Part shown: positions 25,707-60,686 of the stretch, in pieces
Layout of the letters: the number at the start of each line of letters is the position of its first letter
Numbering within the stretch: the stretch's first letter is position 1
Assembly (NCBI RefSeq): GCF_002571385.2
Contig: NW_019217870.1
Coordinates: 679,098 to 743,097 of the forward strand
DNA from: Stylophora pistillata
Lineage: Eukaryota
DNA length: 64,000 nucleotides
Reading direction: 5' to 3'
The notes under the pieces: model-generated
Told to the model about the DNA's origin: nothing
The model's database searches: none
Seen by the model: the letters and a program-made list of their open reading frames with translations, nothing else
Program-made: the position numbers and the translations under genes

Positions 25707-28700
25707 TTAACTGTTGATTGGACAGATCCAGTAGTGAATAACACACTTCATATCCGCACCTAAAAACAGAGTTGATTTTCCTTTACAATGACATCTGTAC
25801 ACGATAGTTCCTGTTCTGTGGTCAGTTTTTGCATCACCAAAGACGTATTCTGCAGCATTAATCGTTGAGCATGTAGCCGCTATAATCTTCATTCCCTGAG
25901 GTACAAAAAAATTAAAAAAGTTGGTCTTGAGAAAGGAAACCTGAATTTGGTTTTTACTAAAAGGTTACCGCTTTAAGTTCAGGATTCTGGTACGAGACTC
26001 AGATTGAAAATATCAGATAAGAGTGCTCGTAAAAATTCAGCCATCACCTTGACAAACCTAAAATAATAGATCTCCATCGCCTGCGGTAGCTTAGTGATGT
26101 GTAGATATCATATTCAACGATATCCCGCGGCTTACAAATGCTACAACTGCACGTAGACTTCTTTAATATTCTATATCCTACCGGGTGTTCATCTTCCCGC
26201 AGAATGACTTTAGAATCAGCCGACGCCCCAGCTGTCTGCGCGACTTCCTTCTTGTTCTTGTACTGACAAAGGCTCATATTTCCAGGCCCAGGAATTCCCT
26301 GTGGTCCAGGAGGACCCGGTGGTCCAGCGATACCTCCTCCTCCAGCTTGTGATGCATTGACACCGGGAGGGCCTCTGGGGCCAACCAAGCCTGGTGGCCC
26401 AGGCAAGCCTTGAGAGCCATTGAAGCCTCTGGGTCCCATCGACCCCTGAAGACCCCGTGTACCCTGTTGGCCGTTTACGCCAGGAGGTCCAATTGGTCCT
26501 TGAGTCCCATTGTGGCCCCTGGGCCCCTGTGCACCCACTGGGCCCGGGCTACCAACTCCTGGTGGTCCTCGAGGCCCTTGTACTCCAGTATCACCTTTCT
26601 CGCCTTGAAGGCCAGGTTCCCCAGGAGGTCCAGGTGGTCCGGGGGGGCCGGGAGGTCCGGGAGGTCCGGGTGACCCGGCTTGCTGGGGTTTTTCTATTCC
26701 GGTGTTATCCTCCTAAAAGTAAAATAAAACATCTATGTTTGGTTTTGTTGTTACTTTCTTTTGATCAATGGGTTAAAGTTAAGTAGGTCGCCGATTTGAC
26801 CTTTTCATGAAGGATCACACACAACAAATCGATCAATTATTCCTAATTCGCTTCTTTTCTCAAATGAATTGCAAGAAAGGATAAGAACGCTGCTACATAG
26901 ATAAGATTAAATCCTTATTTTTTCAGTATTTAAAATTCCATGATCTTCCTAAGACTTTCGACTTAGATTTTTCCAGTCTTACCTAGTTATAAGCCTTCTG
27001 CATACGTTTTTCCACATAACTGCTTTGAATGAGTACACACACTTTCAACGTGAAGAAGAAAAGATGACTTAAAGGTACATGTACCCCAACCAATCATCTT
27101 ACCTCGTTGCTGGTGTTGAGATTGTTGCCTTCGCCTTTCAATTTTTCTGGACCTTGAAATTAAAAGAATGAAGTAGATAAGATATAAGTCAGGGTTCATC
27201 AGATTACGTTTAGGTACGAAAGGGACAGAGATGTTCCCAGCTAAGCTATGTCACAGATTTATGGGGCGCAGCTGGACCAGTTATTCGGTCTTCCTTTTCA
27301 TTTTTGTTATAATGGACTTTGCGTTCCAAGCCATTCTCAGTGTTCTTGTGCTCTTAATTTATAACTCTCCCCTGTGTGCAGGAAAACTTTCGAAAAGGGC
27401 ACGAGCTTTTTTTTTTTCAAGCGTATTTAATGAACTTAACCATATTCACAAACAAGTTAGCTATATAGTTTTCACTTCGTTTTTCAAAGAATGCTCTACT
27501 CGCTACTTGATTTTTGTGGAAAGGAATGAACTATCTTCTTCTGCAATCGCGTGGTTAGCGGTTTTAAAGCGACAAGTAAGTATCTGTGCATTAGAAATTC
27601 TATCGTTTTAAAAGTAGGGGTGACCAGTTGTGTCTAATGACAGCCTTAGCCAGTCATCAGAATGGAATTTAACCTTCCATGCCATTGCTAATTGTCTTGT
27701 AAAATGAATTTCTGATCTTCTATCGAAGAAGGCATTTTAACCAGATTTACTGATTTTATTTGGCAGAAGGAAGTCTTAACCTTCTTAATCGGTGTTTTTA
27801 CTTCTAGTGCGAGAATTCTTCACCTTCTTTGCTACCCTTTTTGCTTTTTGTCTTTTTAAACTACTTTAAACAAAACTGGAGATTATTCAAATGCCTTGAA
27901 GGTCAAAGCACATTTTTTCATGTTTTTCAGTATGTTTGACCAAAGGACAATTAATTTCAACAAGCCTAGAGGAGTGTGCGAAGCTTGCTCAGTTTCACCT
28001 ATTTTCCAAAATTTAAAGACTAGTTTCGGTTGATGTTACAGAAAACGTAATTTGGTTATATCAGCTAAGTTGAAATTGTAAATTGGGCACCGTTAACAGT
28101 TAAAAAGCTGACTTCTCGAGCGTTAACCCTTCGTCAGAGCGAAAATTACCTTGTTACCCCCACTGAACTGAGCAGCACCATAGTTTTTTTAGAAACGTAC
28201 CCCCCTTGTTACAGAAAAAGGTCTGATTTCCTCCCTAACATCTGGTTTCGTTCTAGAGATTCGATATTTTGTTTAATCGTCATTTTCTCTACTTCAATTG
28301 CAAGCATTAGTAAATTTAGTAGCCGGACATATGAAACTAGGGGTTTCATGTGTCCATAGGCTGGGCTGTTCTAAAAATCACATTCTACGTTCATACAGTG
28401 ACACGGCTATTCTGCCTCCACGAGTCAGTCTCCTTTGGGTGTCCGAGTGATAGTATGTGGATTCGTAAATCTCCCTTTAGGTTCTTTCTACGTTTTCATT
28501 GTTATAGCAGAAAAACATTCCAGATCCTCATGGGAACCGGCTTGAATCGAACTGATTGTAAACTAGCTAGGTGATGCTTGCTCTGTCATTTTCAGCTACT
28601 CTTTTTAACTACAAAAATTCACACAAATTTTTGTAGAAGCTCGGGTCCAATTCTGAGAGGAATTTTTGTGAAACTTTAATAAGAGAGCACAAACCTAGTT

Positions 28701-31374
28701 TAATATGTTTCAGTAGTTTTGAGTCGAAATCATGTCAGCCAAGACACATATGCGGCACGAATCTGTTTAAGCAATTTCGATACTTCTTCTAGTTATACTT
28801 TTCATAATAAATCTGCAGCCAAATCGTTAAAATTCCACTGAAGTTACAAAGGCATATTAAAGATCCCTTGACGAACTTTTCATCGAAATCATTTCAGCTT
28901 CGGTGGTTCTTAGCTTTGAAAATCAACATTTTCAACATTTTTTGGTCTGCAAAGAACGTAACTGATACAGTAAATCTAATGACACATTCAAGAAACTTCG
29001 ATGGGCTTTCATTCGGATCGAAATCATTTAACTAGATTCCATTTCTGCGCTCTTAATCGTTTTCATCACTTAGGTACGCTTGTTACAAAAGACCAACTTT
29101 TCGTCTAAGCGTGAACGTCTTTGGGATGCTTTGATGCACTTTCATTCGAATCGAAAATATCCAATTCAATCTAAAATCCATTATTACGGTCTTATCTGTT
29201 TAACAGAAAAAAGTTTTAGTCTGATTTGTTATGAATGGAACAAGTATTCGAATCTTATCAAAGAGAAAAAGTGGATTTTACGATACCTTCATGAGCTTTC
29301 ATTCTTATTGAATTTATTTGAAGAACATTCCATTTCTGCAGAGCAAAAGCTGCGTTCTCTAAAATGTTTAATATGTTCATGTATGCATGAAATTTATCCA
29401 CTTTCGATGTAAGCATTCGAACTCATTGGAGGTTCCTTCAGCGCAGTGAAATCGGCTAGATTAAATTTCTGTGATTCTCTTTTCTTTTTTTTTTTTAAGC
29501 ATTTTTTTTTCACTCTTCGACAACAGAAAACGCCCATTTCTAGATCTACATGGCGCCGTTTTGTATGTGATCCAATCCCAGCTAACAAACTGAGATGCGT
29601 TGGTGACGGCAGTTCAAGTGAAGTTTATTGTTCGTCATTTGAAACAGTTGCTCAGAATATTTGTTCTACGTAAGGGGTTTTGCATTCCTACATGTGCACA
29701 GGATGACCACAAAGAAGACATCTAAACACCAAGATACAATTCAAATATTTAAACAAGTTGTTAATGGCGTTGTTACAAGAAAAACCTAAATCCATTTCTG
29801 CCAACTGAGGACGATTTTGAATGAAAAGGATGGCCGTGCTAACCAGCCAGCAAGAGGAAAGCATTTGAGCTATTTGTCCGTAATCAACTGAGTCTGATCT
29901 GATTTGCGTGAAATTGCGTGCCTCTCTCGCCCGGCAAAGAAAAGTATGTTTGCATAAGTTATGATGTTTGGTTGTTACGTCAAGAGTCAACATCTCTGCA
30001 TTGGTTTGAATTTCGAAAAGGTATTCTAGATGAAAAGCTGTAAATGTATTTACTCTGTACTTTAAAGGTTAAGACTGACTACCTAGGCTGTATGATGAAG
30101 CCCTAATACGTGGTTTATTTTACTCGAAATTGAAGAAAGAAAGGAAGGAAAAAGTGAGAGTCGAGCACCGTGTGCGTGTGATACCAAAAAACCTTCAACT
30201 GTTGGTCACTTGGATGATTTTGTGACAATGATTTTAAATCAAGATTGTATGGCGGACGCAGTTAATCATTTTCTTATATGTAGGTTGACCGAGTTGACCA
30301 AAACTGACTTCTTTTTCTACACGTAGGTTGAAAAAACAAAACTGAGTTAATCGTGCTGTAATATCATTTAAAGGTGAAAGTTTGGATATGAATGGTTAGC
30401 TTTAAAAATCGATCGTGCACAATTTTCGCGCAAGAAGCCTTTTCACATGATAAGCCTGGTTTTCTGTTTTCAGTGTTAGAACATGTTTAAGAGGTAAGAA
30501 GACATCGGTTTGTGTCGGGTAAAAGAAAATTTCGCAAGTGATTAAGAAGAAATTTGATTAGTGCTCGATAAGTCTTTCATAACAGGTTTACTAGCCTTAA
30601 ACACAATGAAAACAGTTAACTTGGTTGAAAACAGAATGGATAATCTATCGGCCACTGGAATCGCTGCCAAGAACACCAAAATGTTAAAGAGATTTGGTAT
30701 TGTTCAGTAACGGGCTTTGACCAAAAGAAAACAAAAACTCACTCACTTATTTGCTTGCGTCGCATGAGGAATCAAATAAATAATTCGAGAACAAAGGAGG
30801 TGACATTGTATGGTGACCGAGCGTTAAACGGCTCTGGGGTGGCGCGCTTAAATTACCTGCAAGTGCTTGGATAAAAAACAACATTGTCTTTTAACGTCCG
30901 GCTCAAAAGCTTGATTATTTTTCCATGATCATATCTGATGTGCAAGCCTAAACAGATGACTAAACTTTAGCCACACTATGCTAATTCAAAATTCTTACCA
31001 CTAAACTCCTTTGCACTGTTTTTTTGGCATGGGCAACCTTTTTCTTCTCTTCTGGTCAGGGCGACTGTCAAGAAAAGATTGACGACGGAAAGGATAAGGG
31101 CCGCAGCAATCAAAATTCGCATCATGTTTGTCTCGCTCAAAAAGCTTCGTCGCTTTCGGGGAAGTATTGATGCAGTACTTTCATGATGCTCTTTTGAGGT
31201 TTCAGCATCTGACCATGGGGTTTTTGTCTCGTCCACTCCAAATGTCATTTGTGTATCCTCTTTTGTCTCAGTCAAGGTAGGGTAGATTTGATTCGCATGG
31301 CTTAATTTGGTATGGAACTTTTCTCCAATAGATGACCTCTTCGTTGTCTGCTCCTTCAAACTTGAAAAAGACAT
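25707..31374 (-). CDS. Type II transmembrane short-chain collagen / scavenger-receptor-A-like protein, paralog A (about 381 aa, no coiled-coil stalk)
   Basis: Exons 31374-30999 (tail, [26 protein letters not shown]), 27152-27103, 26712-26182 (about 40 Gly-X-Y triplets with two interruptions, then GNMSLCQY) and 25895-25707 ([33 protein letters not shown]). All GT-AG and phase compatible. Confidence 0.85.
28045..28200. mobile_element. Degenerate copy of the palindromic hammerhead-bearing family
   Basis: GTAATTTGG..AAGCTGACTTCTCGAGCGTTAACCCTTCGTCAGAGCG..AATTACCTTGTTAC..TTTAGAAAC. Confidence 0.65.
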
Positions 31375-32812
31375 GTTCTGGTTGCGCGGTTAGGATCCAA
31401 TTCTTTGTACCTTTGCAAAAACGAGATTCAGTTGCTCTCTGTGGGGTTTCCTAGCGCAGTTTTCAGTTCGAAAGCGACTTCGTGTGAAATGTAAGAATTT
31501 CCTTAGACCTAGACGTCACTCAACAAGTTGCGAACGAATTACATTCACTGTAATGAAAACAGACGACTGGCTGTCGTCTGTCTTTTCCTGTTGGCAAAGT
31601 GTCTCCTTCGGAATGATCTTGTCGCCTCTCACCAAGCAATGTCTGCTTTGGCGTTCTTTCGAGCTTTCCTTGCCTTAAGTAAGAAATAGATGTGGTTGGT
31701 AAACAAAAGCCAGCTTCAATCTTGTTATTTCTATTGTTTTTGACCTCAACCCCGTGGCCTTAATTAGTTTAACTTGTTTGACTACGTGATTACCATGTCG
31801 ATGTCAATTTACTTAAGTACTCACGAATGTTATCGGATGTATGAACATTTAACCTGGGTCACGAACAAAAACACACGTACCAAAAAACCTCAGTGCAGAT
31901 AACAAGACGCAAGAATGCTGAACTGACTGCAAAAATGACCAAATAAATAAGAAGTAAATGAATTTTCTAATAAGAGTAGTCCTCTCGCAATTCGTTATTC
32001 ATTATCAGAGCAGTTTCAGTTACAGCGTCTCTCCGTAGGAATGCAGTCAGTTGCTTGGCCGAATGGAGTCAAAGCTAATGAAAGGAAGAACACGTTCACT
32101 TTTTTTTTTTTGGTAGTTAAGAAAATAAAACAAGTGTCACAAGAAATTTTTTGTTTTGTATTATACAGAACGACTCAACCTCATTATTCAATATTCCTGG
32201 CTTTTCTTGGTTAAGATCGTATAGCTCTCTTCCAACATGTCCAATGCTTTTGAACCTGTTTTTGCTTAGTGGCGAGTTTGCACGGTTCGGAGTGTTAAGT
32301 TGCGTACATAGTTGCCACTCGAGACAAAGGACAGAGGAACTCTTTAGGAAAATATCGAGGGACTCACTAAAAGGTCACAGAGACAGCAGGATAGCCTCCC
32401 AGAAACCAAAAAGAACCACAATAAAGGCTATTAGTAAATTCGTATGATCAAATTTAATTGTGCAAACCATGCTTTGTCTTCCCTCGCTGCGCACGATGAT
32501 GAAGGCTGTTCACGGAAAGAAGCGTAGCATGGGAGTTCTTATCTACATAAGATTTAGATCTAGAGTAACGCGTTCAAGATTTCATCAAGCATCTTGTTAC
32601 ATGCGTTCGCTGTGCTTTTTTCCAGCTCCTGGGAAGTTTTTCAAAGCACTCAAAAAACTTGAGGTGTTCGCGATTACGCATCCAGCAATTCTTACGCTCT
32701 TCTCGGGGTTCTCCGAACTTACCGCTTGCTACATATCTCAAAGAACGTGCACAGACCCATGAACCAATTATTAGCTTGCGATAATGAACGGTTTGCATCC
32801 CAGAGTACTTAC

Positions 32813-32900
32813 CTTGTGCGAAAGAACGACACTGAAACCCCAAATTTTCGTAAAATGCTCCACCTTCGTTAGACACAAGATCCGCCCAAGCTGGTTCAAT
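32813..32900 (-). other. Probable 5'UTR exon of paralog A (5' boundary unknown)
   Basis: Strong donor CAAG|GTAAGT at 32813. An acceptor TTTTGCAAAG| lies 36 nt before the paralog A ATG, with an in-frame TAA in between. Confidence 0.35.
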
Positions 32901-34611
32901 AATCTTGGGCTGTATACTTTAGCTTAAATCTTACGGTATTCTTCACTACTCAGCATCATACGTTCTGTTCTGCGATCTATCAGCTTTAAGGTTACAAAAA
33001 TGCTGCATGTATAAGCTTAAGGAATTCCACACCCAACCAACTTGTTTCCGGTGGGAAACAAGTCTTGCTCGCATTCCAGAACAATTCACAGGCAACTTTT
33101 CCCTATTAAACGTTGGGTTTATTTGACAATCATGTTTCTTATCCATTCGCTGGTAATCGGAGGATTTGGGTTTTGTCATGATGATAAAATTAACCTGACC
33201 CTTCCCTTATGACTCCCCTTCACCCTTCTCAATGGCAGTTACTCGGTAGTTAATTTTTTACGATGCACCCCCTTTATACTCTTTTTGCGACGACTGATCT
33301 CCACTCCGTCTCCCCTGAACAACAACATTCCAAACTCTTCACCTTGAGTGAGAAGATTTCGCAAGTGTACATCGTGGTTAACCCCGAAGGAAAAGGAAAG
33401 TTTGCTGTTTATCGACGTTAGCCGGTGTCAAGAGCCACATTAGCTATTATGTGTGTCAGTTATACGTAACAGTGACGCGAAAGCGGAAATTGCTTGTGAT
33501 GAAGTGAGTTTGACTTCACCCAGTTCGGTACAAACTCAAGTGGAAGGCTGCAGTTACTTCACTCTTGAATGCCGGCCCAGCTGGCCTTTGAAGCCTTTGC
33601 TTTTTTCTTTCGCGGTGTTTGAAGAGTATTCATTTGTTTGTTTTGTTTTTTTTTTATTTCAACACGCCACGCTACTCATTTCAAACTCAATAACTCAACT
33701 GAGGGTCAGCTGAGGAACAAAAAAGGCAACTGCAGCTTAATCGTTAGAAATAAGAGTTTCTAAAGCTTAAGGCCTGCTTTACTACTTACTACTCAAGATT
33801 GTCATTTAATATTATCAACTCAGTTGATAACACCAAATTATCTTGTGATACCCCTCACGAAGCACCTCAGTTTCTTTAGAAACGTTCTTCCTTCATTCAC
33901 TTAGAATTGAGGAAATGTCAGCTCAGCTTAGCAAGTATATAAGCATGCAGGATATTTTGGCCACAAAGGTATTTTCGGTTTCGATCATAATAATCAGGGC
34001 AGTTCTGATAGATGGCCAGTTTAGCATAAAAAAAAGCTAGAGTTTGCCAAGCTAATTCTGGTTTTATCGTGATAAGAACTTCAACTCGTCACTTGTTGCT
34101 TCGTGAAATATGGGCCAAAGGAATTCGAAGTTCGCGAGTGTTTATCTGTCCGCGGTCCAGATTTTGCTCTTCTCTTTTCGTCCTTTTCTCTCGTCTTTAC
34201 GCCACGAACTGCCCCTGATGAAGTTAGTGTACAAAGCAAGTTTAGTTATCTTTATTTGCCATCGCGAATATTAATTACAACAATTTTACAACAATTGATG
34301 AAAAAAAAAAAATGGAATTTCTGGCGTTTGAGTGCTAACGAATAAGCCGGAAATTAAATATTTCTGCGGCACGAGAGCAACAGGGCAAGGGCTTGGGCCC
34401 TTGAGTATAGATGCATTATGGGTATAGTGATATGAGTATTGCTTGTGATAGCACGTGGGCAATCATTCTAGGCCGGCACCATCTCAGTTATTGCTAAGTT
34501 TATTTATTTATNAGTGTCTGTTGTGTAGTGTAACTGAAATGAAACCCAATCAAAACCATCAACGTATAAGATAAGAAAAATTATCATGGCCATACGATAA
34601 ACCATAGTAGA

Positions 34612-34816
34612 ATAAGGTAATTTGGTAATATCAACTAAGTTAAAATTGTAAGTTGGCCACCTTAAAGAATTTAAAAGCTGACGTTTCGAGCGTTAGCCCT
34701 TCGTCCTTCGCTCTGACGAGGGCTAACGCTCGAAACATCAGCTTTTTAACTCTTTACGGTGGCCAATTTACAATTTCAACTCAGTTGATATTACCAAATT
34801 ACAATACCTTGTTACC

Positions 34817-34850
<34 letters not shown>
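34612..34850. mobile_element. Palindromic Penelope-like repeat carrying minimal hammerhead-ribozyme-like cores
   Basis: Long inverted repeat centred near 34705. The plus arm reads GCT-CTGACGA-GGGCTAACGCTC-GAAAC-ATC-AGC (34710-34742). Confidence 0.7.
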
Positions 34851-35635
34851 CCCTTTATTCATAGTAAGCAAGTTTTTTTTTGTTTTGTTTTTTTTTCTGA
34901 AGGCGCGAGAGATGAAGGAGTAGCAGAGTTGAAAAACTTTGGACCTTGATAGAAAACGAAAATTTGACGAATATTTCTTCTGTATCAGTAACTATAGACG
35001 AATGATTTTGCGTGCCTTATGTCGTGAGACGTCAGATTACAGTTGACATGTGAGAGCTGCTGTCATGAAACATCACGGCAAAGTCACATTACGCAAGCAG
35101 GAAAGTTCTACTTTAAAAAACGGTACCTTGTGAATATTTCGCGCATTTTCACACTTATTTAATTTGGTGCTATAGTTTCAACTTTTGGAAAATATCATCA
35201 AGATTTGCAATAAACAATTGTTACGGATTTCGAAGGAGATATATTGTTCCCCTTTAGTTTGAGAGCGAGAAACCACTCAAATACCACTGATCGATAAGCG
35301 ATTCAAATTTGGGATTCAGTCGTCACATTAAAGTCATAAGTTCTGGAATAGCTCTTTTACAAGGGAAATTTTTTCTAATTCAGGAGCTTGCGTTATCTTT
35401 GCTTGATGGATCTTTTGTTACGCCCTTAGCATTAGAACAGTACGTTCTAATACGCAATCAGGGCGAGACAAACTCTTATATCGAAGGAACCAATCCAATA
35501 CCACCCACTGATTCCGTCACAAATTTGCATAGCAATTGTTCATTGAGCCTTAAAAAATATTCGGCGAAAAAATTTTAGATTTGGCAACCGTTTAGCTTGT
35601 GTCTGTCTTCAGAAGACTTTTCTGAATTTCAAAAC

Positions 35636-36050
35636 ATGGCTCAAAACCATAATAATCGAGTATTCAGTCCGTACGCCGTGGACAATGTTGAAGATGGCTC
35701 TGGGGGTCGCGAGCTGGGCACGTTTAAAAGCAGCTATCAAAATCCTGCGTACGAGAATTGCGGAGATCTATCCCACGAATATGAAGACCCAACTCGACTT
35801 TTAGCCGTGAAAACGGGGCCTCGAAGGAAGCGCAATGAATTGTACGAACCAACAGAACTGAAAAAAACCGAAGAACAAGAAGAGGAGAAAGTGGATTACA
35901 ACGAAGCTGACTACGGTGGAGATTCTTGGTTGAGTCGGGTGATCTTATTTCTTATTTTGATGGTTTCGCTCGCATCGCTGCTCATGGTTATTTTAATCAT
36001 TCTTGGCAAAGTTGGGCCAAGCTGCTCTTGTGACAAGAATTCTGCTCAAG
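35636..36050 (+). CDS. Alternative first coding exon (tail + TM + CxC), distal, of paralog C
   Basis: ATG in AAACATGG context. Encodes YQNPAYEN, HEYEDP, NELYEP, TM RVILFLILMVSLASLLMVILIILGKVGP and CSC, ending at a phase-1 donor AAG|GTAAG. Clearly paralogous to 41002-41485. I found no ectodomain exons before the next first exon. Confidence 0.78.
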
Positions 36051-39000
36051 GTAAGCAGCTGGTTTTAGGTGTTTTGTTGTTAAAACAACTTTCATCATTT
36101 GTTGCAGTTGTTGTCTTTCGCAAAGTCGGTGTTTTGCAACTTGTTGAATAGATAGAGCTGGGAATGTTATTCTCGTGTAAGCAGCTGTAGGTTGTGGATG
36201 TTTACGTAATGAAGAATTTATAAGATTGTTTTTCGTTCACACTTAAACTTGCTACTCAGTCTAAAAGGTGGATATTTCATTGGAAACACCTTACAAAAAG
36301 TGCTTATACAAGCTTCTGTTCTTTCAGAAGCCATGTCATCGGGCGGCTTTCCGTTGAATAACTTCACTTCTGATTTCTTTGCTCATTTGTTCGAGAGCGA
36401 AATCATTTCTAACGAGAAAATGAAACAAGTTAGAGCGCGAAACGATGACATAAAAACCTCTCAATTTTCCATGGATAAAAAAAAAATTTGGCATTTTTTA
36501 GCTGTAGAAGACCTGCACAGACTCATTTTCTATCGGCATTTTGTTCGGAGTCTGCACAAATAAATCTTTCGATGCTTTGTGCGTCAATTAAAATGTTCTA
36601 ATCCCATGACAATCCGCGGGGTACATCGTTTCTTTATCATTGAACAATTTAAATAATCCAAAGCAAATGTGCACAGATATGAATCAGTCTTAACTTGATC
36701 TTAAAGTTTATAAAAAAATTTGTTTACATCACGTCGCTGTAACTATGTTAAGAATTTGAGCAACTGTATTGTTCAACTCTAGGGTGAATAATCCCATATA
36801 TTTTTTTACCAGATGTAATATTTTAGATAAGAAAAGGTAAAAAGCAAGGAAACAAAAGAAGAAAATTTCATTTCAAATCTTTCTCCGCAAAGATCGTGAT
36901 TAAAAATGTCGTAGTTGAAAAAATGATTTTTTTTCTGGTTTCAATATTGGCGCTGTGTTCCTTAAAGTTTTAAGTTTTTCAAACTGGGCTGAAAATTATC
37001 CGCAAAGGGAGACAGAAGTGTTTACTTTTTTCAGCTTCAATTTTTGAAAAAATAAAAAGAAAAAAAAAGAAAAAAAAAAACCTTCAAAATCTTATCGAGG
37101 AAATCAGTGAAATCGAGATGTAATTTAAAGATCAAGTTTACAAACAATTTAAGAATATGATATTGTAAGTTATGCTTTCAAATCTACTTCACCAAGTTAT
37201 TGACCCATGTTGATAATTCAGACGAGTGAACTTCGCTAACTATGTCGATAACGATAGTTTTGTTACGGCAAACTCTATGCGTAATAAACTTTTTGCAGAA
37301 AAACATTTTACGCCTTGGTTTTTCATCTCTCGTGGTTTACGCAAACCGCCCTTCCTATTTTCATGAATGAATAAATACATGATTTGCCCGTGACTGATAA
37401 GGACTAACTCACGCGACTTCATGTTTTACGGTTGTCAAACGAAAACGTGTCTGTTCTCACGATCATTACAACGACTCCATTTCCCTAATCCACCACCAAC
37501 ATCGCGTGATTTTGGTAAAATTCAGATAAAAGTTTTTGGGAACACTTTTCCACCAAAATGATTTAAAATTGTACCAACTGAAAAGTGACTGATCAGGATG
37601 TAAAATTGCTACAAACTCGAAGAGCTTCTCAGAGAACTGAGACAGTCTAAAGTTAATAGCATAGTTTTTTTGGTCTTGCTGGAGTTTTCTAGCCAAAAAA
37701 ATAAACAAACAAAGGAGAAAATCAAACTTAGCTTGGTAGTGCTCTTGAGCTGACTAGTTCCATATTCAATATATATAATAAGCTTTTGCTTCATTTGCTG
37801 CAACTAGGAAAGCAAAATACCGCTGGCTTGACATGTCTACATCATTTTGTTAATCTAAAGTTTCTTTTATCCTCCTCCAGTTCATGTCTATATTAACCCT
37901 CAAACTCCCAGTGATTTCAAAAAGGAATATCGTAACTTTTGTTTACAATTTTTTAAAGCTGATTCAGTAGCCAACAAAAAGCGTCATGCACATTCTTATC
38001 AATCTGCTGGAAGAAGGTGTCCAATGTGTGAAGCCTCAAAATCCTTCATCAACTGGTTCATAAAATAAATTTAAAGGATATCAGAAGGGAGACTGATTGC
38101 GAGCCAAGTAAGCCAAACAAGCCTTAAATTAGTAGACTTAAGACTAACGTGCAGATGGTTATTCCTTGTTCTTTCATCAACTTCCGAGCCAAACGAGCCA
38201 CTAGAAGAAGCCCTGTATCCTTGTCACTTATATTGAATCTGCTTAGAGGTGCAAGTGGTGTTAAGAATAATCGTTAAGTCTAAACTTAATATTCGATCTG
38301 TAAATGTTCTTATTCTTTGCAGTGATTTTCACTCTCTCATCTTGTATTACGTTTTATTGTGGACTTAAAGGACTTCTGTCAAAAGGCTTGCGCTCTGTCA
38401 GAGCTCCCAAAGTGCAAAATTTGCCTTATAGCCGACGGTTGATCTCAAAAGTAATTAAAATAGCTTAGAATTGTCTTTTTTGAGCTGCCAAATTCTGTGT
38501 ACGATCGGTTTATTGTCGTTTCGCTGACGTGTCTGTTCGATGACTTCCACTATGCCGAAAACTCGGGCGATGTAGGATCTGCCGATGATACCCGAAACGA
38601 ATGCAAAATAGGGAAGAGCGATTTTAACGTTACATTTTCCAATCATTGTTGTAATACCTTCCAATACTCTGAGTCGTTAGATGGGATTGTCTAGTCTTGT
38701 CTCGAAGTCTCTGATTTTACAATTCGCTAACCCCCTCTATACATGCAAATGACTCTTCATAACAACTTCCCGTTTGGTGAGGCATTTTTAGTTCAAGCAA
38801 CTGAATACTTTGCTTCGGCTCAGATGTCACACTTTTGAGATGCGGCTCCTTTCATTTCGTGTCTTGATTGTGTTGTGTTCATCGTTTCAATGACGCTTTG
38901 GCAAGGTCACTGTTCACAAGCCCGCCAATTACGTGTAGTTATCAACGAAGACTTAGGACAGTTGCTTCGAGCAGGTTTTCGCGTCAGAAAATTTCAACCG

Positions 39001-40275
39001 GCCGACGCTTGGGCTATGCGTCATAGTTCTCGAATCAGTTTTTTTTTCCTTCCAAATTAACCAACTTCCGCCTCGAAGCCTAAAGCCCTGAGGTTTGGAT
39101 TTGGGAATCACCGAGACATAAAGCCAATTATAACTGTAAACCAACTTTAATTACTACTTTGCTTATGAAAGTGAAACTGGCTTGGCAGATAAAGCCTAAT
39201 GCCCACGGGTTTGTCTAGGAATGCGTTCAGCCTTCACTTCACAGAGTGAACACGTGCTCTTAGCATTTTCTATAAATACATGGCTTTTGTTCATGTATGA
39301 CTCTGAAACAAGTCAGTGGGACAAGGCGTTTGCTATACTCCTTTGACAAAACTACTTACATGCGGACTCTTTTACCTGATAAAACATCCGCTTGGAAACT
39401 GAACTGATCAATCAGACGATGGGTTCAAAATGGGAACTTGAATACTTTTCCGGCGGGGTTTCCGCGCTTGGAGATTTCACGCCGTTATTTTGTGGAGGAT
39501 GGCAATGAAATGTACAAAGTTTTAAAACGTACTTGCTGAGCTATTGTTCTGTCCGTTAGCTCTTTTGTTTTGCCTCGACCTCGTTGCCGTCTTCGTCGTG
39601 GTTTGCTTCAGGCCCCTTATTGTTAAGAAAATAATCGATACTATAATTAATCCTCAATTTCCTCCGAGGACTTTAGTTACCTACATGAAAAAGAGGGATA
39701 GGTAACTTGTAATGAGCCATATTTGTTTTTTTTTTTTTTTACAAAGTGACCTCAAGGTGGGCCCGACCTCGGAAATCATACGCGTGCCTAGCATATATTC
39801 TTAGAATTGTTTATGGCTTTAAAGGCTCCAGAGTGATGTAACTTACAAAATTACCCCACATTCCTAAAACAGGAAATTGAAGTTTTAACGGAATCACTAA
39901 ATTGACAGCAGCAGTCTTAATGTCGTTTATCACTTTTTTTTCCCGGCTTCCTTAAAAGCCAGGCCTTCAGAGTTAATATTGGCTGAGAAGAAAGTCATAG
40001 GAGGTTAGCCACTTTATAATGGAATCAAATTTGAGAAAGCCGACTTGCATTTACAATCCTTCTTTATTTCGTTTTATATTTGTTTATCATCATTTTTTAC
40101 CATTCATTTACGCCTGATTGTAATTTAGTTCTTGTGTTTTTGACTGAAATATTTCATTTTCTATTGTATAGTTTGATTAATTCATCTTTTTGTTTTCCAG
40201 CCTTGTTTCGGTCATTTTCGGTGATAAAATTTTATATTCTCTCTCTTGTTTCGTTCGCTGACAAATGTAATAACA

Positions 40276-40647
40276 CATATGATGCACGATCCTCGCAGTA
40301 GATAGCGCTATTTATGCAATAGCGAAAATAAGACCTAAAAAAAAATCAGGCCTGTACGGGATTCGAACCACTGACCTCTGCGATACTAGTGCAGCGCTCT
40401 ACCAATTGAGCTAACAAGCCAACTGGGAGCAGGCCGTTAAGTTGATCTTAACGGCCTGCTCCTAGTTGGCTTGTTAGCTCAATTGGTAGAGCGCTGCACT
40501 AGTATTGCAAAGGTCAGTGGTTCGAATCCCGTACAGGTCCGATTTTCGCTATTGCTTAAATAGCGCTATCTACTGCGAGGATCGTGCATCATATGTATCT
40601 AATACCGCAGTACAAAATATATGAACTTCATACACTTCATTGTATCT
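40276..40647. mobile_element. Palindromic tRNA-derived SINE-like element (two head-to-head tRNA-like units) with 14 bp TSD
   Basis: Inverted repeat about 40275-40596. tRNA-like units at 40349-40420 (-) and 40468-40539 (+) have A box TAGCTCAATTGG, B box GTTCGAATCC and AGT at the anticodon position. CAAATGTAATAACA flanks both sides (40262-40275, 40648-40661). Confidence 0.85.
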
Positions 40648-41001
40648 CAAATGTAATAACAGTTGTTCAAGTTGTGAAATTGTTACTTAATGTCTCTGTT
40701 TGAGATTACTAGTAAAGGTAATTTTTACGAGACAGGTCATTGACGTAATGAATAATTAATCGGCTTGCGTGGAGAATGCGTGGAACTTGTTCAATGGAAT
40801 CAATAAACCAATCAGCGTGCTTCTTTTTGGCGCCTTGCGTGAGAGAGACTGAAACATTTCCCATTCATTAGTGTCCCACTCGTGTGTAGGTGTTGGTGGA
40901 TGTGTTGTTTATAGTATTCCGTAAGGTTTAAGATTCGGATCTGTGCACGTGGCTTTATTAGTTTTGTTAGTGTTTTGGCTCCTGAAACTGTGCGGATTGC
41001 G

Positions 41002-52346: not shown

Positions 52347-55300
52347 CTGAATGTCACTAACAGCGGCTTTTTTTCCTGAAGTATCCGTCAACCCGACCGA
52401 AACTGACTTCTCCTGGCACCAACTGAAGTTACCCATTCCTTGTAGTCCCACAGGTCCCCCCGGTCCTTCTGCTCCAGGAGGCCCATCGTCTCCAGTGGGC
52501 CCTACGGGTCCTTTATCACCTTGAGGTCCTTTAGTACCGTCAGTCCCTGGGAAGCCATTTACCCCAGGGTTTCCTTTATCCCCTGGGGGACCTGAAGACC
52601 CCGGGTCTCCTGGAGGTCCTGTTGGACCTGTTTGTCCCGGATCTCCTTCTGGTCCAATCGAACCATTCCTACCTCTTTCGCCGACTGGACCAGGAAGGGA
52701 GATTTTTGCCTTCACCTTTTTAGAAAAGCGAAAAAAAGAAATGAATCAGAGAAAGTTAAAAATAAAAGATATAATACTACTCGTGCACTAATATAAATGG
52801 TCTTAGAAATGTCCTCGCGAGTCAAATCAAGCTAGCTTTAAACAGCATAAACTCTATTTGTCTAGGAAGATCTCCTCAAATGGAAGCAAGCTGAGGTAAC
52901 CTCATCCAAAGCGATCGACATAGAAACAAGCTTGATTGAAAACGATATAAATCCAATCGCTTGTTGCTAGGAATCAACCTGTTCCCATTAAATTCGATTT
53001 TTTGGGTACTGTTCTTGTGGTGACAGTAACCACGAATGACGACGAGATGGTCTGGAACTGAGTGTAGCGATACTTTTTATTTGAACACTGTGGTTTGGTA
53101 AAAAAAAGGCTGCATGGGGTATTTGTTTTGATGGGATCGTTCCCGACTTCCAAGAAAGTACCGAAATAACATTGGCCATGTTCCAATTTTTGCGTCTAAC
53201 TCAAAGTGCTCGCCAAAATATTCGTTTACTTAATGAGAAAAACACACCATTAAAAGGGAAATGGTGAGCCAAGGGGGAACAATGATCGCTGAGCATAGTG
53301 GAGGTCAAGGCGAATTGGAAAAGAAAAACTTGGAAAAATAACGTTAAACTCTTCAAGCGGAGCTGACAATTCGGTACCTCTAAGAGTGATTTTCGATTGA
53401 GCGTCGTAAATCCAAAACCATACTTATCCCAAAGGTTAATCAGAAGAAAGGAAAATAACTTTTATAGCGGATAAGAACTCAAAGGAAAAACAATCAAACT
53501 GCCTAGTTAAAGCGCGGGAAAACGCGGCGACCAAGTCGTGATTGGCTTAAATTCTAATCTAGTTTGTGAAGGAAGAAGGGTGTGAGTTTTCTTACCCAAT
53601 CACGGAGCAAAATAAAGCAAAACCAAGGCAATCGCAGATCACCAAGGAAAATGAATTGAAAATTTCTCTAAACACAACCCTGATAAATAGTATCAGAGAC
53701 AATGGCGCTGGAATAATTCCTATACGGGTACACTACTCCACACAATTTCCAGCCATGGTAAAACCACCCAACAACAATATACACACGAAGGATCAAAGAC
53801 ATTTTTTCTTGCTATTTTTTGTCACTGACTAAGGAGCATCTTCTTTCACAATTGCTATATAATTAAAAAAAAAAAAATAATAAGCGGCCAGAGAAGTGAA
53901 ACACACCCGTTCTCTAACAGTGTTGTTCATCGTGGCAATCCCAGCATCAATAGCATCATCATATTGTTCCAAGCTTCTTTTTACCTCTGACAGCTGCGAA
54001 AATAAGACAGGTAACATTAACCCTTTCCACCCTGACATCAGCATGCACATTCTCCATACTGTTCTCTATACATTTTCTACGATGCCAATAAGGGAGAATT
54101 TTTTTAACAATCAAGAGCTCCTATATTTGGTTGGTCATCGTTTCCTGATCAACTCTCGTGATCTCACTGTTTGATTCAGCGATTGTGGGTAATGGAGAAA
54201 TTAGATGTTAGTCGCTCCAAGGAATATTTCTTCTGCGTTTTTGCGTGCTACCAAGGACGCTAATCAGTAAAAGAAATATCCTGATACTTATCTCAGCCCT
54301 CTTATTCCTGATCTATATTTTCAAACGCTACCACTATTTAAAACGTCACTTTTCATTTAACACCGTATGCTTTGTAGCTCTGTCAGGACTATGACGAAAC
54401 AAATGATTATTTTCCACTCATAACATACCTTGTTGGTGAGCGTTGCGTTCAAAGAATCAAGTTGGGTGAACACTGAACCATGATCAGGATTAAACTGCTG
54501 TACTGAGTTACTTACCTGACAAAAAAAGTAAAGAAAGAAAATAGATTCTTAGCTGGCCTATAAAGACTCCAATGCTGTACCAGCCAGGTTCCTATGGTTA
54601 CGGTAATTAAGGCAGGCGAGCTCGGGGTGAAACAGTGAGGTTTTTACATGTGCACAGCAGTAAACAAATAACCAAGGTAATAAAGAAAAAAGTCTTGAAT
54701 TCTACAAATTTCTGTGACAGAAGGAAGAATCTAAGGATTATTTTTTGTCTGTTATTAAGATAAATTCTTGATTCGGGAATTGTAATTGCAGTTGCCGGTG
54801 ACTGGAGGATAACAGGAAATCTGTTGCTCTTTTATTCTAAGGTTGTAGAAACTAGGACAGAGTGGCGTTGAGCAACATAAAGGTTTAATATACTCAAGAA
54901 TGACAACTGATCACAAGTTACTTTAGTATGAAGTGAACTGAGTAAGTAAATTTTGGTTTTAGCGACGGAGTTGACAATGTAATTCAAATTGGTCATCGTT
55001 TAAGAGTGACTAAAGCTAACGGACGTTGGCCTTTCCTCCTCGCTTCGACGAAGGGCAAGCGCTCAAAACGCCGACTTTAGAAACTTTTACGGTGGCCAGT
55101 TTACATTATCACTCAGCCTGGTTGATAAAACCAAGTTATCTTGAAACACTCCCTATCAACATAGCACCCGAGTTTCTTTAGAAATTTCACCCATTAATAA
55201 GCGTCTCCTTGTCAAAAGGTTACTGATTGGGGGAAATATCACACTACGGTCTCTTGACAGTTGAAAAAGCTCGAACATTTTAGTCACCTGTAAATCAGCC

Positions 55301-58300
55301 GCGGGACAACACAAAATAATGTATGAGTGAAACCTTTGTCAAATTTTTCTGAGCTTAACGTCACGCACCTATCTTTTAATTTTGAACTGCTAAATAAAGC
55401 TTACATGATCAACGACCTCGTAGAACCGATCAGAAAATGACTTGATCGCATCTGTTGTGGAGTTAAACTCCGTCTTGGTTGCCATTAGGTTGTCCTTGTT
55501 CCGTTTTGAATCCCTCAATAGTGATTCCTATCGATACAGAAAAATTATAAAACAAGCTATAGAGTCAATATGCTATTTCAAAATTGTTGGTGATCAGGGC
55601 TCAGTTGTTTGAAGAGCGGATAGCACTACCCAGTGGAAGGCAACCAAGATAAAAATAATGGCCCTTTTTGGCCCCGATTGATTATAAAAAGGCCTCTATA
55701 GGGCTTTAAAGCAGGGGAAGAGGAAGGGGGGGACACTATATGACGAGTTATATGGAAGCTGCAGTACTTCTTACAAGATTGAAAAAACATTACTTGTGTA
55801 ACTAGAAATCACGTAAGGTCCCGTGGGCGAAGAGGTTGCAAGAAAGGGAAGAGATAGCGTGTGTCATAAGCTGAATAACATCAGCCAATCACTCTTTAAC
55901 GTCAAAGTTTTGAGACGCAGATATTGAAATTTAATTGATGAAATCGAAAGATCTCACTCCTTGCCTATCCGTACTTCCTGGAAGAGCTCGCTTGCAGGCC
56001 AATTCACATTATTATTACTACTCGCCGCCAAATGACAAACTGCCCTCTCTAAAACGCTCCGTTTCGTGGGTCAAACGGCAAAGTGCGGGCTCTAAATGGC
56101 ATTTGCCGCCCTGATATATATTTTATCAAATGAATTTGTACGATTTGGCCTTGTGTATCGATAATAATGATAATCACATGACTTTTGGAGGGCATATAGT
56201 TTATTTGTGTCAGTCGTAACATCATTTATTTGCACCCTCGCTCTGCTTGGGCGCAAATGATGCTACTCGGGCCACAAATAAACTGTATCCCCTCCAAAAG
56301 TCATGTGATTGTCCTATTTGTCAGACTTTGTCGGTCCGTACTCTAATGGAATTGTTTGCAGAAATGAATGAAAAGCACCAACAAAACTTAATTTTTCAAG
56401 GCTAGCGTTTTTAAAAATAGGGGGAAAGCCCTACAGAAATGAAATAAAAAATTTAACAATCCAAAACAAAAAGGAAAATGCAAACAAACAGACAAAATCA
56501 AACAAAACAGCCATACATTCAGGGGTTCTTACCGCCTCTGTATGAAGAGATGAAAGGTTATTTTGCAGCTCCTCAATAATGTCATAATATGGAGAAAGGT
56601 TCATGGCAAAAGTTGTCGTTTGATCTTGTTGGGATGAGCTTTCCTCTGCTATCTGTTGGCCTGTGCTGGGCAACGTCGTACCTTGATGATTGAAAATGGT
56701 TAAATCACTTTTTTATTAGATCAGTGTATATCATATTTGACAAAGCACATTCAGGAATGAGCTGACGTTGACAGGTGTACCTCAATTAGGTGAAGCAGAA
56801 AAAAAAAAATACAAAAAACAAAACAAAGCAAAAAAACTGAAAAAAAAAAGGAGAGCTTGTATCATGCCATGCCTGTCAGTGAGCCACTAGAACTAACTGA
56901 GCTGTGAAACCAAGTATTAAGATCGTAGTGGTATCCTTAGCGCTATGTACATGGAGGCCCTAACTGTTTCTTCGGCGTAGTTCTGCAAGAATCACTACTT
57001 CACCGATCACTTAAGGTTAAAAGATAATTTCTTCATGTAGGTAAGAGCTGCAAAATAGACTATATATAACCTTGCAACTTTGATAGAATCTATGTACCGT
57101 TTTGTGGTTTTGGATGATTTTTTTTCTACGGGTTTGCGGTTTCTAAGAGACCCTAAGGCCCTACCCACAAAAACTAATGATCTACAACATTCCGTAGTCA
57201 TTGACTAGATGGCGTCAGTGAACTGCAAGGCTTCATTTCGTGTTACTGGGGTTGATAGCCTGCAAGCACTTCAAATCAAATCTCGGAATAAGAAATTTGC
57301 AAATAATAATCTACTTAAATTCAAATTTGTCTCATTATTGTTGGTCTCATAATACCAAACATCTTATTCTGAAACAAATTATAACATATTTCGCTTCCCT
57401 GATAAGCTCACTGAAATAATTGACTTTAAATTACATTCATAAAGTGAAAACATGATACATAGATAATTGTCTGTAGCTAGCGTAACACTGATTTCACGAC
57501 ATTGTTGTCGCAGAGTAATGGCACAGGCAAAGTGAATAAAATATGTCGTAAACGTCTTACGCTGTAACGGCATTGATGCCTGCGTAGTGTTTCAAAACGC
57601 AACTACAAAACTTAAGCTGAGAATCGTAGTGCACTGGGATATAACACAAATATTTTCAGGAGTTCTTTAGTCAATTTTTCAATGATTTCCGTATCTGAGG
57701 CCTTAACAGATTCTTCATTCTATAATACAAAGTCGCTGGAGTTAGTGTTATCATTTCGAGAGTGATGCATTTACTCACTGGTAAGGAATGAAAACTATTT
57801 CCAATGAGCTTTAGACAAATGACTTCTTATACCAAACGAAACGCTTAGATTTCAGCATTAATAATGATATTCTGAGCGAATGCTGGATAAAGATTTACTT
57901 TGAAAAGTTTGCATTGATTGTCGTAAGCGCAGATTTTTGGTTACACCCAGTTAGGAAACTAGTTGCATAAGTCAAGTATAAACAATTCCTGCATCTTTGA
58001 GTGGAGTTGATTATACTTCCCCGCAGAGATAACCACAGTAGGAAACTTATAGATAGTTGCCAAAAATTAATCAAAAAAACAGTTAGCCCACCTGAATAAG
58101 GCACTACAACTCCAACGACCATTAAAATGACTATAGCCAATGCGGAAATAGAGAGAACTAAAACAAGATACTGAACAATGCGATGAATGCATAGCCCATG
58201 GCAGCGTGTATTTTTGTTATGATCGCGGTTAGAAGCCGATGTTAAGGATCTATTTTGCATCTTTTTAGCTCTTTTCTGGCCATGTTTCTTTGGTTTAGCA

Positions 58301-58440
58301 TTATAATTTCCTGTTTTAAGGTTCGTAGTCTGTCTTAAGGCAACATACGAGCTGTCAGAGCTGAGGCGAAGCTTTGTGTCCGATGGTGTGTATAACTTTG
58401 ATTCACGAATGTCTTCAATTGATGCAGAGCGACCAGCCAT
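52347..58440 (-). CDS. Type II transmembrane collagenous receptor, paralog D (terminal head exon not visible, probably in the gap at 51645)
   Basis: Exons 58440-58092 (tail with SSYVAL, TM), 56681-56533, 55527-55405, 54515-54429, 53993-53907 (coiled-coil-like) and 52715-52347 (28 Gly-X-Y, GNFSWCQ). Exon sizes 149/123/87/87/369 parallel paralog C 146/123/99/87/375 with identical phases. Confidence 0.85.
53382..53670. mobile_element. MITE-like repeat
   Basis: Ends AGAGTGATTTTCGATT..AATTGAAAATTTCTCT. A related element lies at about 50657-50915. Confidence 0.45.
54945..55185. mobile_element. Degenerate copy of the palindromic hammerhead-bearing family
   Basis: GACGAAGGGCAAGCGCTCAAAACG..TTTACGGTGGCCAGTTTACATTATC..GTTTCTTTAGAAA. 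Shorter fragments lie near 33800-33885 and 52165-52230. Confidence 0.6.
56172..56310. mobile_element. Palindromic MITE
   Basis: AATCACATGACTTTTGGAGGG..CCCTCCAAAAGTCATGTGATT, with inverted symmetry extending inward. Confidence 0.8.
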
Positions 58441-60271
58441 CACAAGCAAGCGTATCACGAACTTCCCAAGCTGTACTGTTCTCAATGAAATTTGGTGACT
58501 GACGCTGGCTCCAAATGCAAGTGCTGCTCGTCGTTAGTTAAGACGTCACGTGGATTTTGGTTACGAGAGGGCCAAGTATCCATCCCTGATGCACGTGGAA
58601 TAGATATAGGGCTTAGTGAAATAAAATACTTACTTCTGTTATGCACAGTTGGACAAGTAATTAATAAAAAAAACGCGTCAAAACAATTGAAAGATGATTG
58701 GCTAACACGATTACAAGCCTTAGGGTGTATAGAATAAATCTATATTTTCTTGAAAAATCCATTTGCGCTCAATGATCTATAGTGCATCGAAAATGAAAAT
58801 ATATTCTTTGTCTGGTTCTTTGCCTTCACCAGCACCGAGGAAGACATTCGGGGTTACCGCACGCTTAGGAAAGATCGAGAAAATGAGATCACCCTACGAC
58901 GGTGAAAGACCGGCCTTTTTTAACAAAAACAAAATTCATAATTTCACTTGATGGTTTTAAGGTGGTAGTGCGTCGCCCAGATACAAGAATAAGAAAGCTC
59001 AGTATAGTAATTTAATACATTTGACTGTCGGGAAGTTGATTAACTTGGGTAATGTAGTTATTTGATAAAGAGCTTGCAAATTCTATGCATCATATGATCA
59101 CGAATAACTCTGAAGAGTTAAGTTTTGACATAATCATTGAGATCGAACCTGAGAAGTTTATGTGTGTACCCTTCGTATACTGCGCTTAAATCCTTGCTAT
59201 AAAGTATTTTGTATACTACATTTCTTTGTCTCTTGTTGTTGGTGCTTGTTTCGTGCTTTTCATGCTTCTTTTTGGTTTTTTGTTTATCTTAGTTGCTAAC
59301 TTTATGAGCTATTATTGGAACACAGACCCTTACGTGTCCACTAGTTTTCTAGCAAATTCCGAATAATCGTTCATGGCTGTGACTTCATCCAGTAATGGTG
59401 CTGTAGTTAATGTTTTAAGTAAGTGGGGTCGCTGTTCCCCTGTCCAGCTTATTTCACAGATGAAATAACGATTACAGCCGTACGCTCCACTCTTAGGGAG
59501 GCGAGAGGAGAAGTAGAAACACATCACCGACATTACGCGCGAAAAAAAATCTGTCATGACCTGCTAAATTAGCCAATAGATGTATCATGAATGATGAATT
59601 ATCTCCAACTGAACGAACATTCTGAAACTGACTTCCATTGTACAGTTTAGTTGTATTTTGCGAAGCAACGGATAGCCAGTTCACTGGCAATTCGCTGCAC
59701 TTACATATTTCGAGTGACTTCATCGTCACTTCTACAATTAAAAGTGTTTTTTAAACGTGGAATGTACCATACAGAGCTATCACTGAATAAATTCTTTGGA
59801 TTTTAAACAAATGAATAAGTTCTAAACAGAGATACGGTCTTTTCACCGTTCCTCCGATGTATGTGCGACAAAATACGGTCAGTTTGAAGTTGTTCTGTCT
59901 CTATCGGAGAAAAGAAATAACTGATCGAAATAAACTTGTTTAATATCATCGGAATTCCGTGGGCATACATGTTTCGATCAATCAGCGGGAGTACCGAAAC
60001 TTACAAATAAGCGAAACTAAAAAGATTTCCCTTCAGGAAAAGAAAAAAAAAAAAAAAAATAGCAGGCGTAATACACGATCGCTCGAGTGTTGTATAAAAA
60101 AAAAAAAAAAGACAGATCACCAAAGATTTGTTTCTTGTTTTTCAAAGTGGTTTTAAATGAATGAATGAATTTGCATTGTTTTTCCATGACCTCTCGCAAA
60201 AAAAAAAAAAAACCTGTGTTGTACCAAGCCGAGTTTGAAAAATATGAAAAAAAAAAAAAAAAAAAGCTTAC

Positions 60272-60686
60272 CTGAAGAATTACAAGGGCAGTCAGGGCCA
60301 AAAAAAAAAAAAAATAGCAGAAGAGCCAATAATAATGCTATCGCAGAAACAAAAAAAAAAAAAAACATCACGGTCATACGAATAATTTTGTCCTTTCTTT
60401 TAAAAAAAAAAAAAAATTGCAAAGTTTGTTGTGAAGTTGCGGCTTTCTCCTGAAAAAAAAAAAAAAACGCGCCAGNTTTGACGCTGTCGTAAACTGGCGC
60501 TTTAAAAAAAAAAAAAAAAGTCGCTGCAATGTGTGTGTCCCGTTGTAAGGAGTTAAAAAAAAAAAAAAAGTCGGCTTCGCTATACAAAGAATTGGNGATT
60601 GTGTTAAAAAAAAAAAAAAATCTTTGGTTAAGGCTCATGCTACTCGCCGCGAAGCCAAAAAAAAAAAAAAAGTTTTCGTAGGCCAT
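60272..60686 (-). CDS. Alternative first coding exon (tail + TM + CPC), distal, of paralog D; sequence partly overwritten by artefactual A runs
   Basis: Readable parts give MAYEN..NSLYSEAD..PVYDSV..KRKDKIIRMTVM..VSAIALLLALLL..GPDCPCNSS and a phase-1 donor CAG|GTAAG. The frame is kept across the length-preserving A blocks. Confidence 0.7.

Follow-up and report, generated by a model that had tools for sequence, protein, structure and literature searches.

Class A scavenger receptors (MSR1/SR-AI and II, MARCO, SCARA3, SCARA5, and COLEC12) are built from a type II transmembrane helix, a coiled coil, a collagen region, and a C-terminal head, and scavenger receptor tails are described as very short in one survey (PMC5119243). 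Two further systems share a small fold. In resistin, a jelly roll of six strands forms the head above a three-stranded coiled coil, according to PMC9238481 and PMC4474570, and the C-terminal modules of PCSK9 consist of six strands with disulfides between strands 1–6, 2–6, and 3–5; the structure common to resistin and the PCSK9 modules is likewise described in PMC9238481. The genes described here lie in a stretch of 64,000 nucleotides of the genome of the coral Stylophora pistillata (assembly GCF_002571385.2, contig NW_019217870.1, positions 679,098 to 743,097 of the forward strand; hereafter the window). Three genes of this window, A, C, and D, encode predicted membrane-anchored collagenous proteins (no search for secreted forms among the other members was made), and their C-terminal head represents a domain family missing from the catalogues, with a fold and a receptor architecture that are both known. 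With a probability of roughly 55%, we take it to be a trimeric head that binds the ligands of a scavenger-receptor-like receptor, the tyrosine-motif tail of which would couple to uptake or signalling.

Six-frame translation of the window reveals three collagen exons ending in GNxSxC, as well as two downstream exons with five cysteines. In genes A and C the head is split by one intron, flanked by GT..AG and in phase 0. The first half in gene A (minus strand; GNMSLC..EHP at 26283-26182) comprises the neck, the first cysteine, and strands 1–2, and the last exon (25707-25895) carries strands 3–6 with five cysteines, followed by the stop codon. In gene C (plus strand), the corresponding halves are GNFSQC..EPV at 48768-48860 and the last exon, also with a stop codon, at 49769-49954 (splice 48860>49769). 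Both joints, with the introns skipped, are found in contigs of all four sequencing runs compared, three of which were guessed to be RNA by the tool and one is of undefined kind. Each spliced head thus contains six cysteines, one from the first half and five from the second. The last exons of A and C are 39% identical (E 1e-13), and since the next best match in the window has an E value of 0.3, this similarity is not due to chance. The shared head with its phase-0 intron, as well as the first half of a head in gene D (GNFSWC, minus strand, at 52433-52346), had been proposed in an earlier note made from the sequence alone, and both are borne out by the exon mapping. The six-cysteine pattern and the length of about 95 residues proposed there also hold in the family at large: among 98 complete heads of 85–98 residues, 93 have exactly six cysteines, three have seven, and two have five. 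The putative common motif AAEY is not family-wide, with 23, 42, and 44% conservation at its last three positions in 111 heads sharing less than 70% identity. In the same set, the six cysteines are conserved at 99–100%, Trp86 at 95%, Gly67 at 88%, and His84 at 84% (numbered as in the head of P0001).

The family is large. The last exon of gene C has 33 matches at E ≤ 0.001 in this genome (38 candidates scored), located in clusters on several contigs and including identical pairs, possibly haplotype duplicates, and four copies with an internal stop. A profile of 24 last exons retrieved 141 proteins (7,984 scored); among the 120 of these that were listed, all those with a name are from Scleractinia. 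With a profile built from 46 heads, the search retrieved 227 representatives at E ≤ 0.001 from a 50%-identity library of 1.84 billion, of which the best 150 were considered, the 77 weakest lying outside this list. Thirty of the listed relatives, picked for distance and hence a non-random sample, were looked up, yielding a taxon for 18 and none for 12. Thirteen of the 18 are cnidarian (six from Nematostella, two each from Exaiptasia and Hydractinia, and one each from Actinia, Actinostola, and the jellyfish Sanderia), and five are bilaterian, namely a crinoid, a starfish, a sea urchin, and a sea cucumber, representing four echinoderm classes, and the annelid Owenia; no chordate, arthropod, mollusc, or sponge is found among these 18. 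A second-round homologue search, limited by shared words, returned 27 proteins and no additional phylum. Judged from sequence, the family is ancient, being present in cnidarians as well as in bilaterians, and is expanded in corals. In a midpoint-rooted FastTree phylogeny of about 95 residues, with little resolution at deep nodes, one group (local support 0.97) unites the bilaterian heads with four unnamed ones, and the coral heads fall into several lineage-specific groups. One member (L016:565-1680, G000:C87) is intronless: a single frame of 372 residues runs from the tail through the helix, the stalk, and a short collagen to the complete head. This member may be a retrocopy or represent a single-exon subfamily. 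Six database proteins (P0009, P0010, P0011, P0123, P0132, and P0286) contain either two heads or a tandem of two whole units, and several of these seem to be gene models in which adjacent copies were fused.

Searches for a known family covered the window exons, 24 last exons, 46 + 46 heads, and 20 full proteins, and none of these gave a Pfam match over the cut-off for the head, in agreement with the reported absence of SRCR, C-type lectin, C1q, TNF, fibrinogen, and COLFI signatures. The families SCRL (8 of 46 heads, best E 0.003), zf-C4 (3 of 24 exons, E 0.006), and Sha_B_N (best E 0.007) were rejected as noise caused by cysteine spacing. NCBIfam and PHROGs contain nothing credible for the head, and sequence searches of the PDB reached E values of 0.06–0.9 only. 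No confident match to a characterised family thus emerged from the Pfam, NCBIfam, PHROG, or PDB sequence searches, and the head is not listed in the domain catalogues searched, as the suggestion of an undescribed module had implied. With the head alone as the query, scores in the ESM Atlas were only 0.77–0.78, within the chance range. In a feature search with the starfish protein, three unnamed cnidarian clusters came closest, in which Collagen is the only common Pfam 38.1 family; the MSR1 and SCARA5 clusters ranked next (0.82–0.75), providing leads only. Searches of the genome with Pfam Resistin and PCSK9_C1 gave nothing over the cut-off (for PF18459, nothing at E ≤ 0.1). In the literature searched, the domain and the family are undescribed and six locus identifiers of members are unmentioned, although supplements and subscription papers could still mention members.

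AlphaFold2 models of a coral and a starfish head (87–92 residues, built from 46-sequence alignments; predicted local distance difference test, pLDDT, of 92.5 and 89.2) contain the same six strands arranged in a β-sandwich. In each of four VIA-align searches the PCSK9 C-terminal modules came first, with Z scores of 6.0 (root-mean-square deviation, rmsd, 3.2 Å, 74 residues aligned), 5.5 (3.0 Å, 77), 7.5 (2.9 Å, 78, with 13% identity), and 6.2 (2.8 Å, 77); they stood about 2 Z units above unrelated rows in the Z 7.5 search only, and within about 1 in the others. Resistin reached 5.2, 4.3, 5.6, and 4.8 in these searches, with a best rmsd of 3.1 Å over 64 residues. The Cys/His-rich modules of PCSK9 (M1–M3; Pfam PCSK9_C1) are likewise two-sheet sandwiches of six strands, with about 80 residues and six cysteines. 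In PCSK9, three modules follow each other behind a protease, whereas in the coral family each chain carries one module on a membrane stalk, and no sequence match of the heads to the Pfam models of the PCSK9 C terminus was found. The cysteines of the head occupy positions 6, 40, 63, 65, 81, and 88, that is, before strand 1 and then in strands 3, 5, 5, 6, and 6. Since strand 2 contains none, a PCSK9-type 2–6 bond is impossible; in the models, 1–6 and 3–5 disulfides are possible, and a 5–6 bond replacing 2–6 is likely. The likeness to resistin/RELM (PF06954; Z 4.3–5.6) lies in the jelly roll, with no PF06954 match; the RELM signature comprises ten cysteines, compared to six in the head, and RELM proteins are small and secreted by way of a signal peptide, whereas the proteins of genes A, C, and D are predicted to be membrane-anchored and are collagenous. 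The [IV]xGxxCS and CxC segments of the head are presumably in register with resistin strands 3 and 5. The modelled head therefore resembles the PCSK9 and resistin modules and at the same time falls outside both families as these are defined; homology is plausible and, the structural scores being moderate, unproven.

Other small sandwiches follow at a greater distance. H-type lectins (octocoral SLL-2, with Z 4.5–4.6, Helix agglutinin, and discoidin), which have a Gal/GalNAc site between protomers, as well as phage and pyocin fibre tips, score 4.0–4.6, in a background range that unrelated sandwiches reach too. The viral Foldseek list is also topped by phage fibres and H-lectins, with E values of 0.02–0.1. 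There is no PF09458 (H_lectin) match in 92 head rows, and the head profile compared to this genome's own H-lectin domains, represented by a thin three-sequence profile, gave a probability of 0.1%. Of the initial guess of a resistin-like or phage-fibre-like β-sandwich, the part concerning the fold holds, with PCSK9 modules and resistin placed best and fibre heads and H-type lectins further down. The heads of the C1q, TNF, and Cthrc1 type (collagens VIII and X, ectodysplasin, Cthrc1) are likewise jelly rolls that directly follow a short collagen, but C1q-type heads are ten-stranded (PMC7058181), compared to six strands in about 90 residues here. No Pfam match to them was found, and C1q, TNF, and SRCR are absent among the structural matches listed, although such absence excludes nothing.

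Conservation within the head is distributed unevenly. In strands 3 and 6, conserved residues directly follow one another and hence lie on both faces (mean entropy 1.7 bits), conservation in strand 5 strictly alternates by position, and strands 1, 2, and 4, at 3.0–3.2 bits, are as variable as the loops. The greatest length variation occurs in the loop between strands 5 and 6 (6–16 residues). Loops had been expected to be variable in the manner of ligand-binding surfaces; they do vary, but not significantly more than the strands (2.73 and 2.41 bits on average in 111 heads, p = 0.52), of which three in six are equally variable. Because of their conservation at consecutive positions, we infer that in the modelled head strands 3 and 6 would be buried on two faces, one against the core and the other along a trimer axis, with the other sheet and the distal loops exposed.

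For the remainder of the protein, 305 database proteins were collected, of which 299 have the head. A filter that requires a starting Met, a hydrophobic helix after at least 40 residues, and the complete head is passed by 140 of them, giving 83 non-redundant full-length members; most of the 159 that fail it are fragments or lone exons. All members are predicted from hydropathy to be type II proteins with an N-terminal tail and a single helix, with 232 Lys and Arg residues before and 128 after it. N-glycosylation sequons, which in this topology belong on the C-terminal side, are three-fold enriched in the stalks (520, compared to 165 in shuffled sequences), a heptad periodicity that indicates a coiled coil is present in 66 of 82 members, and runs of Gly-X-Y triplets are found in 69 of 83 (0–46 triplets); PF01391 is matched in genes A, C, and D. 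The sequon GxNG[ST] recurs within the collagen of 52 of the 83 members, an example being located at 48522-48533 of the window. This architecture is of the class A scavenger receptor type, from which it departs in the head and in a tail of the signalling type, and NCBI names several members after these receptors. Unlike in most class A scavenger receptors, the head is neither SRCR nor a C-type lectin (no such Pfam match in 92 head rows at E ≤ 1 or in 20 full proteins at E ≤ 0.1), and the collagen that belongs to their architecture is missing in 14 of the 83 members, which have no run of three triplets.

The Gly-X-Y runs, the heptads, and the two-face conservation of strands 3 and 6 together speak for a putative trimer. 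They also bear on the possibility that the head is only a cap for trimerisation and chain registration, while the collagen or the coiled coil binds ligands, as the basic collagen cluster of SR-A does. Such a role would agree with the position of the head directly after the collagen, like that of a collagen NC1 domain, and with conservation focused in the strands of the putative trimer core, no exposed ligand-binding motif being conserved. We consider it improbable, since the head is kept in the 14 members that lack a triplet run, the coiled coil should be able to trimerise already in most members, and distinct loop insertions are kept by subfamilies.

The cytoplasmic tails are rich in tyrosine in this family, with a Tyr content of 3.8%, compared to 1.2% in the stalks, and they comprise 46–437 residues in the 83 members, a set preselected for tails of at least 40 residues. 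A basic-NxxY motif is present in the tails of 34 of 83 members (mean of 1.1 and maximum of 6 in shuffles), YE[DE][LPIV] in 27 (0.8 and 4), and NPxY in 17 (1.5 and 6), and basic-NPxY is found again in four echinoderms as well as in the annelid. In endocytosis, NPxY is known to bind adaptors with PTB domains, whereas adaptors of the SH2 type bind to acidic phosphotyrosine motifs. The conserved cytoplasmic Tyr motifs argue for a receptor rather than for a trimerisation module only. They must also be set against a very improbable alternative in which the protein is a membrane-tethered or shed cytokine-like ligand in the manner of ectodysplasin and TNF, with a released trimeric head that acts, like resistin, on a separate receptor. 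The layout of ectodysplasin, composed of a type II helix, collagen, and a jelly-roll head, does match that of the family, and the nearest folds come from secreted proteins, but the long tails of the selected members, with conserved Tyr motifs, favour signalling into the bearing cell, and furin sites (RxK/RR) occur at the level of chance (4 of 83 stalks, compared to 4.0 in shuffles). Shedding by furin was therefore rejected as a feature of the family.

Substitution rates were compared in nine disjoint pairs of paralogues from this genome, using classes of head sites defined in a distant set. The ratio of nonsynonymous to synonymous rates (dN/dS) is 1.16 at variable sites and 0.32 at conserved ones, and in four pairs the head as a whole (0.65–0.69) exceeds the collagen (0.41). 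Such near-neutral variable sites, together with repeated tandem expansion in corals, are more typical of non-self recognition than of a head that binds an endogenous protein, be it one from the matrix, one on an adjacent cell, or a paralogue carried by another cell, in a receptor for adhesion, self-recognition, or developmental signalling. We hold this alternative to be unlikely, yet more serious than the two discussed above: allorecognition would produce the same pattern of expansion and near-neutrality, the Tyr-motif tail and the trimeric stalk fit it equally well, the bilaterian members form the single group described above with their tail motifs kept, and resistin and PCSK9 modules, the closest folds, are known as protein-interaction modules.

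If the head is instead the ligand-binding part of a scavenger-receptor-like receptor, as we favour, three chains would assemble through the coiled coil and the collagen, with the heads packed around an axis formed by strands 3 and 6. The variable outer strands 2, 4, and 5, as well as the distal loops, would then bind polyanions or glycans presented as ligands by microbes, particles, or cells, with preferences that could differ between paralogues. Clustering would lead to phosphorylation of tail tyrosines, to the recruitment of adaptors with PTB and SH2 domains, and finally to endocytosis or phagocytosis.

Several observations weigh against this reading. The Z scores are all below 8, in the band in which the tool warns that a match may reflect a common arrangement only, and Foldseek returned nothing at E ≤ 0.001 from the PDB or the viral libraries. 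Motifs of the immunoreceptor tyrosine-based inhibitory type (7 of 83 tails, compared to 9.7 in shuffles) and dileucine motifs (6 and 7.3) are not enriched, and three of the 83 tails contain no Tyr. The tail patterns were picked after inspection, and the members are related to each other, so that the comparison with shuffled sequences demonstrates conservation across phyla and not function. At the variable sites dN/dS is not significantly above 1 (Fisher p = 0.38); positive selection is thus not demonstrated, and relaxed constraint would account for the ratio just as well as diversifying selection would. The few bilaterian members, all in a single group, give the impression of a gene conserved at low copy number rather than of an immune repertoire, and no data on ligand, cell type, or infection were found for any member of the family.

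A wider reading, which we regard as rather unlikely, would place an ancient class of collagenous receptors in the ancestor of cnidarians and bilaterians. The heads would be true homologues of the resistin/RELM and PCSK9 modules, the family would be the membrane-bound stock of those secreted vertebrate proteins, and corals would have expanded it into a diversified phosphotyrosine-signalling repertoire that recognises microbes or algal symbionts. Should the link be one of homology, it would provide resistin and PCSK9 with an invertebrate history. Surveys of cnidarian pattern-recognition receptors start from known domains, and since the head is uncatalogued, they would miss this family, or meet it under the names that NCBI gives it after the stalk; in one such survey, which covered six anthozoans, no more than two sequences similar to class A scavenger receptors were found (PMC5119243). 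Should the heads bind microbes or symbionts, the family would supply many testable candidates for partner recognition and uptake in corals, and members exist in tractable animals (Nematostella, Exaiptasia, Hydractinia, and sea urchin).

The remaining exons of gene A follow the same order on the minus strand. The first exon (30999-31556, with an approximate 5′ end) encodes the cytoplasmic tail, the transmembrane helix, and a CxC motif, and is defined by the open frame 31389-30979, together with a joint and contig cover in the sequencing runs. It is followed by a short stalk exon at 27103-27152, placed from contig joints with ends approximate to 2 bases, and by the collagen exon (26182-26712; PF01391, E 2e-18), with three Gly-X-Y runs and the first half of the head; the stalk of gene A is accordingly very short. 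Two close paralogues of gene A (L015 and L006; G000:C87:617305-625491) are located on the same contig, 54–62 kb before the window, so that the cluster extends past it.

Gene C has two alternative first exons on the plus strand. Form 1 (35636-36050) encodes a tail with NPAY, HEYEDP, and RRKRNELYEP, the transmembrane helix, and CxC, is 100% identical to residues 1–138 of P0001, and has a GT donor. Form 2 (41002-41485) encodes an alternative tail and transmembrane helix and is 96% identical to residues 1–163 of P0002, which continues with the same stalk, collagen, and head. Gene C in this way combines one ectodomain with different tails and transmembrane helices, as represented by P0001 and P0002. 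As these exons are alternative starts of the same gene, the window contains three genes, and the unnamed gene B of the earlier note is presumably one of the two. The coiled-coil stalk is encoded at 45853-45999, 46466-46591, 46889-46990, and 48054-48140, the last of these placed by reading the sequence against P0001, and the collagen exon (48486-48860) carries 29 triplets and the first half of the head. The predicted protein consists of a tail of 102 residues, the transmembrane helix, CxC, a stalk of about 170 residues, 29 Gly-X-Y triplets, and a head of 92 residues. Within gene C there is a tandem duplication (42825-44509 and 44882-46803, 80–90% identical) that holds extra copies of two stalk exons (43349-43513 and 44187-44306); transcripts that include them could encode a longer coiled coil. 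A near-palindromic element of 320 bases at 40275-40596, containing tRNA-like sequence, is probably a coral repeat.

The layout of gene D, on the minus strand, resembles that of gene C. Its first exon (60270-60686; tail, transmembrane helix, and CPC) is interrupted by regular homopolymer blocks and is 70% identical to residues 1–139 of P0266, with nearly all mismatches within these blocks. The stalk exons at 56691-56533, 55527-55399, 54515-54426, and 54005-53904 are 91–100% identical to P0266 and P0229, and the collagen exon at 52346-52716 has 29 triplets, followed by the first half of the head. A possible alternative first exon with tail and transmembrane helix (58084-58440, minus strand, a candidate link only) is 26% identical to the family member P0192 (E 6e-6) and has a GT donor after the helix. 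The last exon of gene D was not found in the window, and the assembly contains no near-identical copy of it (26 candidates scored, the best with 42–47% identity). A complete six-cysteine head is present in P0229 and P0266, database proteins 94–100% identical to the other exons of gene D, and contigs of about 1.1 kb extend past the splice donor into sequence absent from the window. For these two reasons, the exon most likely sits in the gap of Ns at 51645-51724, and is thus missing from the assembly and not from the gene. Contigs also span nearly all of 49954-51644, between the converging genes C and D, so that the 3′ ends of the two genes meet or overlap.

About 25 runs of 15–19 A's, mostly 51 bases apart, are present at 60043-61385, where they overwrite the coding exon of gene D; similar runs of T's are found at locus L016. 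The runs in gene D look like an artefact of the sequence record and not like biology. The exon at 63059-63541 (minus strand), unrelated to the head family, resembles, judged by its motifs, an endonuclease G-like (EXOG) protein in its C-terminal part.

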